From positions 82,584,001 to 82,648,000 of the forward strand of contig NC_091474.1 of NCBI RefSeq assembly GCF_036971445.1: a stretch of DNA of 64,000 nt. Direction: 5' to 3'. Each line of letters begins with the position of its first letter. Position 1 is the stretch's first letter. The notes beneath the pieces were generated by a model that searched no databases, was not told the origin of the DNA, and saw only the letters and a list, made by a program, of their open reading frames with translations. Origin of the DNA: Narcine bancroftii (Eukaryota). Both the position numbers and the translations under genes were made by a program. Below are positions 4,046 to 58,948 of this stretch, piece after piece.

Positions 4046-4434
4046 GGTGATTCGATTTATTTGGAACAGGGACAAAGTTTGTGCAGATGTATCGGGGTCG
4101 AATTGATAGGTGATCAGGTTCATGTTGTCAGCAGAACGGGCTTGAATCTGAACCACCTCAGTCCCAGTGGCGATGTTCTCCGTGACTGTAGCTTCGTATG
4201 TTGCATTTGTAAACTGTACAGGTTCGTCCAACTCATTTAATAAGGTGACGTACACGGTGCAATGACCCTTGTTGTGAGGTGGTGTCTGGTCCATGGCAGA
4301 GATGTTCATCAGATAACTGGTGCTCGTTTCATAGTCCAGGTAATCTACTGTGGTAATGAGACCTGTACTCTCGTCAATGGAAAACTTGTCTTCTGATCCA
4401 GTTAGAATTGTGTAGGCCACAATACCTCCACCCC
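4046..4434 (-). CDS. CDH23: Cadherin-23 coding exon (equivalent to human exon 32), 389 bp
   Basis: tttccag|GG GGT GGA...ATC ACC|gtgagt translates GGGIVAYTILTGSEDKFSIDESTGLITTVDYLDYETSTSYLMNISAMDQTPPHNKGHCTVYVTLLNELDEPVQF...SLFQINRIT. It contains LDYE and the CDH23-specific atypical linker LLNELDE. Confidence 0.96.
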
Positions 4435-4980
4435 CTGGAAATGAGCACAAAATATTCCATTTCATTTTCTAATTCTCCTGTAAAAAAAGACTAGAAACAC
4501 CATAAATAATAATGCCTTCAAAATCAATATCAGGTCCTGATTCCACACACTAACTCTGATTGCATGAATGTATTTGATAAATATATAAAAGGAAAACGGT
4601 GTCAATCATGTCCCATTTGTTAACATCTTGCCCGAGTCCAAAAAAATGACGGGTTCAAGTCCTATCCAGCTGAAACTAAAATGAATTAGCCAGCACTTCC
4701 TCAATTAAGTTTGAGTGATAAATGCTGAACTTGAAATGGCATCCAGATTCCCATAAATGAATGGAAGAAAAACTAAGATGACGAGCCTTTCTGTGGCTTG
4801 ACTCCGCTTTTCCCAATCAATGTCCGAATCCTTTGACCCACTTTACCCTCAATCAACTCTGTGACTGAACATCACAGACCTGAAATCCATGAATTCACAA
4901 CCCTGAGAGAGGAAATCTCTCCCTGTCTCAATGCTTGAGGAGGTACTACTTTCTGCTCAAGCCCAGGCTGAGGGGGTTAC

Positions 4981-5116
4981 CCGTGTCCCGGTCGGATGCT
5001 CGGACCACGATGACTGACGTGCCAATCCCTGCCGTTTCTCTCAAGCCCAGCCGGTTGTACTGCTGTTGAGTGAAAACAGGCACCTCATCATTCACATCCT
5101 CCACATGCACGATGAC
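4981..5116 (-). CDS. CDH23: Cadherin-23 coding exon (equivalent to human exon 31), 136 bp
   Basis: cttttcttgcctag|GTC ATC GTG CAT...CGG GAC ACG G|gtaac translates VIVHVEDVNDEVPVFTQQQYNRLGLRETAGIGTSVIVVRASDRDT(G). This is nearly identical to human VIVYVEDINDEAPVFTQQQYSRLGLRETAGIGTSVIVVQATDRDS. Confidence 0.96.
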
Positions 5117-5941: not shown

Positions 5942-6489
5942 TTATTTATTTTTTAAATCTTGTATTTACAGAGAGTTAAGTAAAAACACAGAACTCAGGC
6001 GGTCTCGCAAAGCCCATAGGAGGTAAAGATATATTACCAATCTTTCGGGCCTGAGGCTTTCTTCAAGGTATAAGTAAAATTATAGAGAGAAGGGAGAAGA
6101 ATAAGAGGGGGAGGAATCCAGACCAATGGGACAAAAGGTGTTAATTGGATGTGATAAGAGGAAAGGTGATTTTGGCTCTGTGAAAGGAGACAGAGGGAAA
6201 AGGGAAGAGAGAGAGTGAGACAGAACAAGGAAAGGAGACAGGGGGGAAGATGGGTGGGGGGGGTAGTTTAATGGAAACTGGAGAAGCCAATGTTAATGCC
6301 ACCCAGTTGGAGGGTGCCCAGACTTCTCCACTTTGCGGGTGGTCTCAATCTGTCAATGCATGAGACCTTGGACAGACATGTCAGCAAGGGATGAGATGCC
6401 AAATTAATTTCATTTCCCTTTTGAATGCTGTGACTGAATTGTTTCCCACATTGTTTCAAGATGTTGTCGAGTGAGATTTTGGCTCTTAC

Positions 6490-6638
6490 TCTGACTGAGC
6501 TCCTCATCCTCCCAAAGTCACCATTGTAAGCCTCCACCTCCAAGACATGGGTGGAGCTGCTCTCTCTGTCCAGCGGTTGGTTTCCTCTGGAGATGAGCCC
6601 AGTGGCCTGCTCCATTTGGAAATTGTCATTGGAGTTCC
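6490..6638 (-). CDS. CDH23: Cadherin-23 coding exon (equivalent to human exon 30), 149 bp
   Basis: ttttttcttctcag|GG AAC TCC...GTC AGA|gtaaga translates (G)NSNDNFQMEQATGLISRGNQPLDRESSSTHVLEVEAYNGDFGRMRSSVR, with the LDRE cadherin motif. It lies within ORF 6268..6717. Confidence 0.95.
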
Positions 6639-7189
6639 CTGAGAAGAAAAAAAATACACACATCAAGCCAAGAATTCTGAAGCTAAAAATATTATCTCCT
6701 TGACCAGCTTTCCTCACAACTGTTAGAACGATAATTTATTTTCTTGTTGACTTCCTACATGGTGCAGGATGCAGCCTGTGATAGCTCCACAATTACTGTG
6801 AAGATGCAGGAAGCCCATGTGGCTGATAAAAAAAGCCTTTATTAGCTATCCCTTGGAGAAATGAGAGGGTAACTCACGCCAGTGACAGTAGTGGTGTCCT
6901 GTTGTTGGTTTGACTTCGGAAGTTGCCACTTATTTCACTTTGGCACTAAACTACTTCACAGCAGTTTAGAGATACCACATGGTAACAGGCCCTTCCAGCC
7001 CACCAGCCTGAGCTGCCCAAACACACCCATGTGACAAATTAGCCCCATCCATCTTTTGAATGTGGGAGGAAACCCATGATGATACAGGGGGAGTGTACAA
7101 ACATTCAGCGCCAGATTCAAACGTGGGTCGTTGGGGCTGTAACAGCGATGTGCTAACCGTTACGCTATCCGTGTCACCTTGCCAAACAC

Positions 7190-7770: not shown

Positions 7771-8351
7771 CTTGTGAGTTGAACAGAAGCATGGCATTTA
7801 GCCTTAACTGCATTGACCTGACTGATTTACTCTCTCCACAGAGAGTATTTATTTTATCTTCTTCCAATAATGACTATCTTAAAAAGTGGAATGGCCTAAT
7901 TTTCCAAAGCATCCTCTGTGAATAAACCTCTGGGGAAGGACACTTTTGGAGTCTAATAGTTTCAAGATCCTATTGTAGCTGCCTTCACCACCAATGCCGG
8001 TGGCACATTCCACATACCCACCACTCTTTGTGTCCCCTGTACTTACTCCCAAGCACCTTAAAACTCTGCCCCTTGTGTTAGCCATTTCAGCGCTGGGGGA
8101 AAAAAAACCCTCTGGCCATTCACATGACCACCTTCTGTGATTGACAGTGAATGGAAGACCCCAGCACTCCTGCTGAAAGAGATTCCCTCACTAATGGTAA
8201 TGAAATATTTGTGACCTTTCTGTCTAGCCAGTGCATCTACACAGCCAAACTCCATGGAAAACAGCTGCTTCCAGCGCAAATAGCTCCTTGAATTCGATTG
8301 CAATGCTTCATGCAAAGTCAGCCAGGTGTTGGAGGAGCAGGTTAATGTTAC

Positions 8352-8412
8352 CTGAGAGGATTCTATACCAAATCTTCCCATTATCTCCTTCATCTGCATC
8401 AGTGGCTTCCAC
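8352..8412 (-). CDS. CDH23: Cadherin-23 coding exon (equivalent to human exon 29), 61 bp
   Basis: ttttgctttaatag|GTG GAA GCC ACT GAT GCA GAT GAA GGA...CTC TCA G|gtaac translates VEATDADEGDNGKIWYRILS(G), versus human LKATDADEGEFGRVWYRILH(G). Phases are compatible with both neighbouring exons. Confidence 0.95.
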
Positions 8413-41378: not shown

Positions 41379-41696
41379 GGGGAAAAGAAAACAAGGCTTT
41401 GACTTAAATGTCCTGTGGCCCGAGAGGGGGTCCGAGGGCCCCATTGAAAATGGCTGCCATAGATTTTCTTGATCTACAGCAGAATTCAAACATATACATT
41501 TCCATCTTGATCAAGACTAAATTTACACTGAGTTAAATCAGCATGTTGTGGAAAAGGCAAGAATTACATTTAAATAAAATCATCAGTAGCTCTAACTTTG
41601 TCAACTTATCCTCAAACAATTATTTCTTCAGCACAATGGCAGCAACAAACTTTTCTATAATTGCAGAATACAACTATTTGCATATATTAACCAAGC

Positions 41697-41906
41697 GATG
41701 TAAAACCCCTGTTATCCAGAATCTAGAAGCAACCAGCAGCCTCAGGGAAAAAATTTGCTGAAAATAAATAGGTAAAACATATTGAAATTTAAAATCAGCA
41801 TGCCTCACCATTAGTTCACCAATCATGTAACACACAGTCTCAAGCATCCGGAAAATTTACTTATCTAGCATCTACCAACCCCCATAGGTGCCCGATATCA
41901 GGGGTA
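41697..41906. mobile_element. TcMar-like MITE (relatives at about 38098-38319 and 57075-57252)
   Basis: Imperfect inverted ends GTAAAACCCCTGTTATCC / GATATCAGGGGT, and three homologous copies in the window. Confidence 0.55.
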
Positions 41907-41954
41907 CTTTTCTTGCCAAATGTATGAGGATTGAATATCAATGCACTAAACTAC

Positions 41955-41992
41955 ATTTTCTAACATCTTCTCTTTTACAAACCTAACTACAG
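41955..41992 (+). promoter_or_regulatory. 3' splice acceptor for the C10orf105 coding exon
   Basis: CTAAC branch-like motifs and a pyrimidine tract end in ctacAG at 41991-41992, 5 nt before the ATG. This implies an upstream non-coding exon. Confidence 0.65.
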
Positions 41993-41997
41993 GAACA

Positions 41998-42414
41998 ATG
42001 ACATCAGAGACCAAGAATGGGATGACTGTAATACCCAATGTTCTTAAGCTTCTTCTGACAACCACAGAAGCTCAAGAGAGGACTGAACCATCGCCTGAAT
42101 CCGTGGACCCTTTGCCGATAATCATAGCCTTAATGTGCATCTTCCTGCTCCTGGCAACGTGCGTCAGTTTTGTGGTCTTGTGTAACCCTGCAGGGCTCGA
42201 CAGTTCCCGCCACGACCCTTACGAATGTATGCCCTACCACATTGAGGATGCCAGTGAGCCCCGGTTAAAATTGTGAAAACGTTTGGGGTCCTTGAGGTGG
42301 TCAATAAACAGCTTCAAGCGGAATCGACCCCTCGTCCAACCTCCGCAAACTTCTGCAAGTCAGTCCCAAGGTGACCAAAATGACTCAGACTTTGCAGAGT
42401 CCACAAAAATGTAA
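41998..42414 (+). CDS. C10orf105: C10orf105 orthologue (small single-pass membrane protein) nested antisense in CDH23, with one in-frame TGA at 42274-42276 (possible pseudogene or null allele)
   Basis: Translates ...DPLPIIIALMCIFLLLATCVSFVVLCNPAGLDSSRHDPYECMPYHIEDASEPRLKL*KRLGSLRWSINSFKRNRP...DFAESTKM*. Recalled human: DPLPMLIALACIFLLLATCLLFMTLCKPAALDPS...ECMPHH...SEPQLRLWKRLGSLR...YMESTKM. The human gene is also nested antisense in CDH23. Confidence 0.9.
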
Positions 42415-42659
42415 AGGTCCAGTGACTGAAAAACTTGCTTCGTGATAAGGACCAGGGATTAAAAGTCATTAAAAAAAATTAAAAGCATGGTCGTCCTATT
42501 CAAGGGGTCTATAATTCTTCTCTTGATGATGGAAGTCACAACACTGTCACTATCTTCCTACCAGCAAACTCATTCATGCCCCATTAGTTATTGATGGTCT
42601 CAGCACTCTTCTGCAGAGTCCATCCACCTGGTCCAACTGCTGTCGGCTCTGTATAGGCT

Positions 42660-42665
42660 AATAAA
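42660..42665 (+). terminator. Candidate polyadenylation signal of C10orf105
   Basis: AATAAA about 250 nt after the TAA, followed by T/GT-rich sequence. Alternative hexamers exist nearby. Confidence 0.3.
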
Positions 42666-43205
42666 CGGCCTGTTACAGGAGCTGACAGTGGTTTATTTTA
42701 AAATATCCACATAAAATTTAAACCTTTAAATGATCATTTGTTATTAAAATATTGTGATTTGCTTTCAACAGCATTCACTGGTCAGTGGTAAGTGCCAGAT
42801 TATTTTATTTTGGAGTGGGGGGCGGGGGGGGGGGGGGGGCGGTTGTCTTTTCCAAAGGTTATTGCTCAATATTGAAATTCCAGGGTCATCCAATAGACAA
42901 GTCATCCAAGACAACAGCAAATAAAGGAATTCAGTTTCTCTGAGCTATGAATAAGCAGAGCAGCAAACCAAAAAGCAGGAGTAGGGAATCCAGACCCAGG
43001 CCTATTCCACCATTCAACATGGTCATGGATGATCACCCACTTCAGGACATCCCAACAACATCACATATCTCTTGAATACCTCAGCATTCAATAGTTCAAC
43101 ATCCTTCTTAAATATATTCACTGACTTGGTCACTGCCTTCTGAAGTGGAGAATTCCACAGGTTCATCACTTTAGAGGTGAAGTAATTACTCCAGATCTTC
43201 TAAAC

Positions 43206-51881: not shown

Positions 51882-53119
51882 ATGTTCTTCAGCCAATAGC
51901 ACATTTCCTCCCAAATGAGAAAGAATTTCAAATGCTCAAGTTTGGACATAATCACTTATAACAGAAAATATAAGCATTGAAAATCATAAAATATTTCAGA
52001 AAAAGTACACAACCTCCCGTCTTCTTGTTTCACTGCCTCATCCATAGATTTCAAGTCCTGGTGCTGTATCTGGCTACTGGATGGCCACCCCCTTTCACTT
52101 TGATGCCCCAGTTGCTCCAGAGTTCATAGAATATAACAGCAGAGTACAGATCATTTGGCCCTTGATGTTGTGCCAACCTCTATAACCCGACTGAACAAAC
52201 TAAACTGACTTCATCACGCCCATAACCCTCTGTTTCTCCTGCATCCATTCTTGGTCTTTTACTTTCAATCAGAATAGAAACATTGGCTGTTTTTTTCTGC
52301 ACAGATGTTGCCCAACCTGCTGAGCATCTTCAGCATTTTCCAATGTTTTATTCCGCATTTCCACCAACTGCAGTTTTTCTTTTGATCTTTTTTTTGAGCA
52401 GTCTGGGATGGGTGAAAGTGCAACAAGAGTGAATGTGTTGCTGAGGAATCTACAGTGGGAGATGGGTTGTGCCACTGACGTCCCGGATCTCTGACTGACA
52501 CCTTTTTGCTCACCAGTAGCATCACTTGGCTCAGAGTGGACCCGTTGCAGAGACCGGACCTGGTGAGGCAAAGTATCCATTTGAAACTGGGGGCACTCTA
52601 TGACAGGGCCATTGATCCACCCCAAAGGGACTCCAAAATTAAGGCCAAGGTCTCCCAGCCTCATACAGCTTCCTGCAACAGGCTTGGAAAAGAATGACTG
52701 TGTTCTTTTAATTTCACTGGCCATCTTGCTGTGCAATCTTGCCACCGACGAAATCCAATCAAGAAACCAGAGGGAACTTCTGTCCAATATTTTATCCTAA
52801 AGTGGCACTTCCACCCCCTGCACCAAAATGTCTGTCCCCATGTGTGCACTCAAGTTCCTAAACCCACAACTTTCTTTCGCAGAGATGAGAGAGTTCCCAC
52901 CAACCCATAGCTGACAGCATGAAAAGGTGATCTGTCTGCACAATAATCTTCAGTCAAGCTTCAATGTCTTTAAGCGACATTAACAGGTGGAATTACCTTG
53001 CATGATGTAATGACCTCATGACCTTTGGTCCAGTCTATCTTGCAGCAACTCAACCGATTCATTATCCAGATTCATGCAGTACAAAGGACTTGTTTGAAAA
53101 ATAGGCAGTTTTACATATA

Positions 53120-54402
53120 TCCTCAACATGATTATCCAACTGCACGAAAACCAACAAGGTCGGGTCAGATACAGCAATGAGCTCTCTGAACCCTTCTCCA
53201 TTAACAATGGCGTGAAGCAAGGCTGTGTTCTCGCACCAACCCTCTTTTCAATCTTCTTCAGCATGATGCTGAACCAAGCCATGAAAGACCCCAACAATGA
53301 AGACGCTGTTTACATCCGGTACCGCACGGATGGCAGTCTCTTCAATCTGAGGCGCCTGCAAGCTCACACCAAGACACAAGAGAAACTTGTCCGTGAACTA
53401 CTCTTTGCAGATGATGCCGCTTTAGTTGCCCATTCAGAGCCAGCTCTTCAGCGCTTGACGTCCTGCTTTGCGGAAACTGCCAAAATGTTTGGCCTGGAAG
53501 TCAGCCTGAAGAAAACTGAGGTCCTCCATCAGCCAGCTCCCCACCATGACTACCAGCCCCCCCACATCTCCATCGGGCACACAAAACTCAAAACGGTCAA
53601 CCAGTTTACCTATCTCGGCTGCACCATTTCATCAGATGCAAGGATCGACAATGAGATAGACAACAGACTCGCCAAGGCAAATAGCGCCTTTGGAAGACTA
53701 CACAAAAGAGTCTGGAAAAACAACCAACTGAAAAACCTCACAAAGATAAGCGTATACAGAGCCGTTGTCATACCCACACTCCTGTTCGGCTCCGAATCAT
53801 GGGTCCTCTACCGGCACCACCTACGGCTCCTAGAACGCTTCCACCAGCGTTGTCTCCGCTCCATCCTCAACATCCATTGGAGCGCTCACACCCCTAACGT
53901 CGAGGTACTCGAGATGGCAGAGGTCGACAGCATCGAGTCCACGCTGCTGAAGATCCAGCTGCGCTGGATGGGTCACGTCTCCAGAATGGAGGACCATCGC
54001 CTTCCCAAGATCGTATTATATGGAGAGCTCTCCACTGGCCACCGTGACAGAGGTGCACCAAAGAAAAGGTACAAGGACTGCCTAAAGAAATCTCTTGGTG
54101 CCTGCCACATTGACCACCGCCAGTGGGCTGATAACGCCTCAAACCGTGCATCTTGGCGCCTCACAGTTTGGCGGGCAGCAGCCTCCTTTGAAGAAGACCG
54201 CAGAGCCCACCTCACTGACAAAAGGCAAAGGAGGAAAAACCCAACACCCAACCCCAACCAACCAATTTTCCCTTGCAACCGCTGCAATCGTGTCTGCCTG
54301 TCCCGCATCGGACTGGTCAGCCACAAACGAGCCTGCAGCTGACGTGGACTTTTTTTACCCCCTCCATAAATCTTCGTCCGCGAAGCCAAGCCAAAGAAAG
54401 AG
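53120..54402 (+). mobile_element. RTE-clade LINE 3' fragment (copy 2), near-identical to copy 1
   Basis: The 404-aa ORF 53128..54342 is identical to the C-terminal part of ORF 586..2523. Same 3' UTR, ending GCCAAAGAAAGAG; 5'-truncated. Confidence 0.95.
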
Positions 54403-58327: not shown

Positions 58328-58634
58328 TAATCAAAGTCATGGCTGTAAGGTGACACATGATGAAAAAGCATTCTTGATTGGTGGGACAAGCAGTAAGTGC
58401 ACCTTCCTTTGGAATGGGAATATATTCAAGGATTTTTCGACATCAAATGTGAAAGGCAGTGGAACACAGGATCTGATGAAGGATCTTAGAGCTAGACTAT
58501 TAAGCAAGAATATCCAGCACTGGGGAGCCAGATGATCTTAAAGGAGTGATGATTGAAAATCACATGGATCTTTTCTCTTTTGCATCTGGCTTTTTGTCTC
58601 AAATTGTTCAGACAACAGCATCCGGGCAACTTAC

Positions 58635-58783
58635 CTGCAGCACACGAGTAGACTCTGTAATGTTCTCGGGGACACTGGCCTCATAGGTGTTCTGCAGGAA
58701 GATGGGTCGGTTGTCATTGACATCCATCACTGTGACATACACGGTGGCCGTCCCAGTCCTTCTGCCACCGGCAGGCCCATTAT
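58635..58783 (-). CDS. CDH23: Cadherin-23 coding exon (equivalent to human exon 28), 149 bp
   Basis: Minus strand reads ...tctctgcag|AT AAT GGG CCT...GTG CTG CAG|gtaagt. It translates (D)[49 protein letters not shown], matching recalled human CDH23 [41 protein letters not shown]. DxNDN calcium motif present; canonical AG/GT. Confidence 0.95.
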
Positions 58784-58948
58784 CTGCAGAGATAAGACCA
58801 AGTCATAAATGTGCACCAACCAAAACGATGAGATTCTTTCTCGAGCTCAGAAACGTACTTCAAAACTTTTCTCAGGCATGAAAATCCATGCACAGGGCCA
58901 TGTGAAAGTCAAAGGGGCACTCATCATATGTTCACTTCTACTGTGGGC

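Follow-up and report, generated by a model that had tools for sequence, protein, structure and literature searches.

C10orf105 is a gene that has been kept for about 500 million years, and in humans it is nested in CDH23. The human protein, which is not in the set of homologues fetched for this analysis, reads LRLWKRLGSLR and ends in ESTKM, and so does the tree shrew homologue (P0059), which is in the set. The set extends to hagfish, bony fish and mammals and includes a few probable paralogues; across jawed vertebrates and hagfish the C10orf105/DUF5527 proteins share a full-length profile match, a single transmembrane (TM) helix, the WKRLGS motif and the ESTKM end. The cytoplasmic motif can be written as EP-L-LWKRLGSLR, and 147 of 166 homologues have a C-terminus of the form [ST]-x-hydrophobic, which is that of a class I PDZ ligand. 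The function of the protein is uncharacterised, and among the papers listed by the literature search none has the gene in its title or abstract. An ESM Atlas search with the sawfish protein (P0002) gave TMIE as the nearest named look-alike (0.92, 164 shared features), along with unnamed arthropod clusters; TMIE is a hair-cell protein, which is curious given CDH23 as the host gene, and the likeness is a lead only. Three divergent small membrane proteins (P0259, P0264 and P0270, from sturgeon, turtle and one other species) carry an LT-W-(R/K)LGS motif, in two cases with an IE-TYL end, and judging by these sequences they are a probable paralogous family.

Among described systems in which a stop-bearing gene stays in use, one is the restorative editing of premature stop codons (PSC) in Fusarium, in a paper reportedly by Qi et al. 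from 2024. According to its accessible text, the stop arose there from TGG by a G-to-A change, as at the locus described below, and an A-to-G change in the RNA restores Trp; those stops are TAG, their editing is ADAR-independent, matched DNA was used and the sites are often shared across species (PMC10776026). In the present case, in contrast, an animal gene is interrupted by TGA, a related species lacks the stop, and one animal supplied the DNA and another the RNA. The other likeness is to polymorphic pseudogenes, for which the accessible part of Lopes-Marques et al. 2024 describes, as here, coding and stop-bearing forms in one species with the coding form expressed (PMC11576641); unlike in those cases, the coding allele is known here from a probable RNA contig only, and it comes without an allele frequency. 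The same text counts 232 human polymorphic pseudogenes, and C10orf105 occurs in none of its seven supplementary files. In one human cohort, according to the accessible part of the source, a person carries in the median 54 predicted loss-of-function variants in the heterozygous and 21 in the homozygous state (PMC9893534), and among the papers listed in a literature search for corresponding counts in sharks there were no shark data.

The stretch of 64,000 nucleotides from Narcine bancroftii analysed here (the window) contains, at 41998-42414 of the forward strand, the C10orf105/DUF5527 orthologue of a ray. Its reading frame starts with ATG, meets a TGA at codon 93 and then, just as the initial annotation had read it, stays open for 45 codons up to a TAA at 42412-42414 (Table 1). 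With Trp put at the stop, the Pfam family PF17665/DUF5527 matches residues 2-138 (E 3e-51), i.e. the full length, at 173 bits versus a curated cut-off of 28.5, and the Trp-restored protein is 83% identical to the C10orf105-like protein of sawfish, 75-78% to those of skates and 69-76% to those of sharks. Neither the 92-aa protein nor the read-through protein is present in the protein collection searched. Skates, sawfish and sharks are represented among the matches, and no stingray, manta or electric-ray name appears among 61 matches or among the best 120 of 244. In these rays the gene may be unannotated, lost or missing from the database, and we make no claim of gene loss for them.

The exons of CDH23 were placed by tblastn with five CDH23 homologues, discarding matches below 50% identity; besides the two in Table 1 they lie at 6487-6639, 4976-5116 and 4046-4435, and between 8412 and 58617 these five homologues gave no exon at 50% identity or above. 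Since the exons at 58617-58802 and 8347-8412 are adjacent in the protein, C10orf105 is nested antisense in one 50-kb CDH23 intron, which upholds the earlier assignment of the locus as a nested orthologue. A grenadier fish model (P0239) fuses CDH23 exons to C10orf105 sequence, which suggests that the two genes either share a strand in that fish or were wrongly joined in the prediction. High-copy interspersed repeats lie on both sides of the coding exon, at about 41700-41910 and 42575-42800 (summed depth up to 1e5), and long open frames that by eye resemble LINE reverse transcriptases are seen at 589-2580 on the reverse and 53098-54339 on the forward strand.

Table 1. Position and evidence of the features discussed in the text, in coordinates of the window.
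Feature	Position	Strand	Evidence
C10orf105 reading frame	41998..42276	+	92 codons plus TGA; ORF, homology, profile match
TGA at invariant Trp93	42274..42276	+	Probable DNA run X4 has A; probable RNA run X5 and organism B run X9 have G
Open tail, codons 94-138	42277..42414	+	KRLGSLR core motif; ESTKM end at 42397-42411; TAA
Predicted transmembrane helix, residues 38-61	42109..42180	+	AlphaFold2; pLDDT 88-89 over 41-60
Codon 9, Met for Thr (T9M)	42022..42024	+	N-glycosylation sequon lost; window letter common to X4, X5 and X6; not in organism B
Splice acceptor of the coding exon (pyrimidine tract and AG)	41950..41992	+	Sequence; X5 starts at 41993, X6 has 27 unaligned letters 5' of 41991
Candidate poly(A) signals (three ATTAAA hexamers)	42458..42483	+	Pattern scan only
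CDH23 exon that precedes the host intron	58617..58802	-	Covered by 4 of 5 homologues, 62-80% identity
Next CDH23 exon, closing the 50-kb host intron	8347..8412	-	Consecutive in the protein with the 58617-58802 exon

The residue lost to the TGA is kept as Trp in all 71 aligned homologues and in 166/166 of a larger alignment, as the initial annotation had held in calling it conserved, and among the homologues fetched none ends before Trp93. A stop at this conserved Trp is in itself no surprise: of 11 single transitions that would create a stop in the frame, two hit codon 93. The intact protein is predicted by AlphaFold2 to be a single-pass membrane protein; outside the TM helix the model is of low confidence (mean pLDDT 58), including a second helix over residues 91-104, and the TGA cuts at the third residue of that predicted helix. 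Irregular models are also present among the shark homologues: isoform X2 of the sharpnose sevengill shark protein (P0053) misses the transmembrane segment, apparently by a splice within the coding exon, and residues 106-179 of the whale shark model (P0014) match the tail in the window when it is read in the -1 frame (9/18 and 6/8 residues, counted by eye), so that this model has a frameshift of one base directly behind the core motif. Either the tail is disturbed in a second cartilaginous fish, or the assembly is in error.

Of nine runs that contain the stretch, X4, X5, X6 and X9 were compared at the locus. All the compared runs are contigs that give majority letters only, with heterozygous sites collapsed, and depth outside about 41930-42460 was ignored as repeat pile-up. 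X4 is probable DNA from S1, the probable source animal, and its single contig (41804-42653) agrees with the window at all 850 letters, with A at 42276; the inactivating lesion is thus seen in genomic DNA in the window and in X4. X5 is probable RNA of the same organism from another sample (S2) and another study, and its single 383-nt contig (41993-42375, depth 6.6) differs from the window by one letter, A>G at 42276, which makes the codon TGG and lies 100 letters from the contig end. An uninterrupted frame through WKRLGS is absent from the window and X4 and is seen only in this contig; the G is known in the species from this one probable RNA contig of one run, and a genomic G has not been seen. 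In X6 (sample S3) the contig aligns from 41991, after 27 unaligned 5' letters, is identical to the window at 268/268 letters and stops at 42258, before the site. X9 comes from a related species (organism B) and gives one gap-free contig (41961-42433) with 31 differences from the window, including G at 42276.

The RNA nature of X5 and X6 is an automatic guess together with inference, and no run is on record as RNA. Both contigs are probably spliced mRNA, because the X5 contig sets in directly behind the AG acceptor, X6 carries the unaligned 5' letters and neither covers the unique intron bins at 41600-41681 and 41928-41968; were X5 DNA, polymorphism would be proven outright. DNA and RNA come here from different animals, with no sample that has both. 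The normal stop is followed by the ATTAAA hexamers of Table 1, and the first donor-like site is at 42787, which suggests that the coding exon is the last one; with the stop in the last exon the mRNA would probably escape junction-dependent nonsense-mediated decay. An AATAAA lies within the coding tail (42303-42308), and the X5 contig extends 67 bases beyond it.

Codon counts between the window and organism B, made with 30 of the 31 X9 differences, give 14 synonymous and 15 non-synonymous changes besides the stop and an overall dN/dS of 0.30, with 0.18 for codons 2-92. The gene has therefore been under selection for most of the divergence between the two. For codons 94-138 (two synonymous, seven non-synonymous changes) the ratio is 0.99; the initial annotation had proposed dN/dS downstream of the stop as a check, and its contrast with the part before the stop has a Fisher p of 0.11. 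We do not read this high ratio as decay, given that p value and a tail most of which is variable in all species. When polarised by hand with other cartilaginous fish, ten amino-acid changes, one of them abolishing the sequon described below, fall on this lineage versus four on that of organism B (p 0.18), and the changes suggest a mild relaxation of constraint on this lineage that is not significant. The earlier statement that the frame has no lesion apart from the TGA stands for stops, frameshifts, the start codon and the splice acceptor; it has to be qualified for T9M, which abolishes the sole N-x-S/T sequon before the membrane helix (present in 152/166 homologues), and for A60V and G73D at fairly conserved sites; M9, V60 and D73 each occur in none of the 71 aligned homologues. 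These three letters are common to X5 and X6, so they are not private to S1. Compared with the rest of the C10orf105/DUF5527 proteins, then, this haplotype differs by a stop at Trp93 and the species by the lack of an N-terminal sequon.

On present evidence the stop is real, being neither an artefact nor a species-wide loss, and we consider it very probable that it is a segregating nonsense allele, which would give a 92-aa membrane stub without the core WKRLGS motif. With TGG in the X5 contig and in organism B, the stop would be young and a TGG message would still be present in the species; the 382 neighbouring bases without any other difference likewise point to a young allele. A recent G-to-A mutation in the Trp93 codon would have produced a broken allele that still segregates, and its mRNA, escaping decay, would be translated into a single-pass stub lacking WKRLGSLR and the PDZ-type C-terminus, which would act as a null, judging by the loss of the invariant motif. 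Of the options put forward in the initial annotation, the polymorphic null thus fares best, while the conspecific TGG contig contradicts fixation of the loss throughout the species. In favour of a segregating null are also the human counts given above, by which loss-of-function alleles are frequent in a genome and polymorphic pseudogenes form an established class. Against it counts that losing a gene which hagfish and mammals alike have retained should be costly, yet there is a weak sign, given below, of homozygosity in S1.

If the population, or cryptic species, of the source animal were fixed for the stop, so that the gene there was a unitary pseudogene of very recent origin, and if the animal behind the RNA came from another population with an intact gene, two samples from two studies could differ as they do, and the 0.97 share of sampled words in runs X1-X3 hints weakly at possible homozygosity of S1 for A; we nevertheless regard this as unlikely, with 382/383 and 268/268 letters identical and the organism code the same. 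Near-identical gene copies collapse in contigs, so a TGA copy in the window and a second, TGG copy supplying the mRNA would look much the same, which is very unlikely given a single unbroken contig that spans the gene and an X4 depth of 8.3 over it versus 8.8 for the neighbouring contig, itself a weak comparison. One contig per run stands behind each letter, and X4 comes from the probable source sample, which would leave room for technical error, either an assembly error giving A or an error in the X5 contig giving G over a species-wide loss. This is extremely unlikely: the consensus error suspected earlier is contradicted by X4, which was assembled apart from the window and has A, and the G of X5 lies well inside its contig, at the depth given above, and equals the ancestral base. 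It is just as hard to believe that the TGA allele is functional, whether as a selected 92-aa truncation or because ribosomes read through the stop or insert selenocysteine at it. The tail does keep an open frame and that of the whale shark model is also disturbed, but the stop deletes the most invariant motif among 166 homologues, which makes the truncation considered in the initial annotation unlikely to be useful. UGA-CUAG is a readthrough motif, whereas the context here is UGA-AAA; the homologous residue is Trp and not Cys, and a crude SECIS pattern finds nothing before 43970, so that we reject readthrough and selenocysteine on context and residue.

The remaining alternative supposes that the genome of the species is fixed for TGA and that in most transcripts ADAR turns the UGA into UGI, which is read as Trp; the duplex would form by pairing with antisense CDH23 pre-mRNA or with some distant partner. 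An RNA-versus-DNA A>G at 42276, such as the initial annotation had proposed to look for, is what we see: it is the sole difference between X5 and the window, and it restores the invariant Trp. C10orf105 is antisense to a CDH23 intron, so antisense pre-mRNA is available in principle, and the accessible text of one study describes sense-antisense pairing as a source of ADAR substrates in some animal lineages, with no such editing excess found in humans (PMC9989829). Editing and polymorphism, however, give the same picture when one animal supplies the DNA and another the RNA, and both context and structure weigh against editing, which we hold to be improbable. The earlier remark that a 5' G is disfavoured by ADARs agrees with the accessible part of a study in which 5'-GA sites, UGA stops included, are disfavoured (PMC9638939); this site has a 5' G and a 3' A, and a perfect antisense duplex would place exactly G:C at the 5' G. 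None of the 99 other adenosines in the X5 contig is changed in its majority letters, including 45 whose 5' neighbour is more favourable (12 with a 5' U and 33 with a 5' A). No cis partner was found in the window, where the best inverted matches have E 2.9 or worse; the best duplex of the site within 30000-54000 (-32.9 kcal/mol) is weaker than that of 8/8 control adenosines, and locally the sequence does not fold better than its shuffled versions (z -0.37), with a pairing probability of 0.10 for the A. Nor is the genomic A conserved, as organism B has G and the 166 homologues have Trp. The stop-correcting cases found in print are fungal, at TAG, in the parts of the papers that are accessible (PMC10776026, PMC5558901), and among the papers listed in literature searches with little subscription coverage, natural correction of premature stops by A-to-I editing appears for fungi alone, stop correction of such a kind being otherwise listed for plant organelles and engineered systems.

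If editing were nevertheless true, possibly guided by the antisense CDH23 pre-mRNA, a vertebrate gene would yield full-length protein only because ADAR repairs a premature stop with a 5' G and would owe its survival to that repair, host CDH23 transcription would switch the nested gene on, and there would be a natural vertebrate ADAR repair of UGA in the context that is hardest for therapeutic editing. On the reading of a segregating nonsense allele the significance is small. The lesion, in a known gene family, behaves like a polymorphic pseudogene whose genomic coding allele has not been seen, and it amounts to a natural knockout allele of an uncharacterised, long-kept gene; annotation of this assembly would call the gene lost, though the species appears to express a TGG message.
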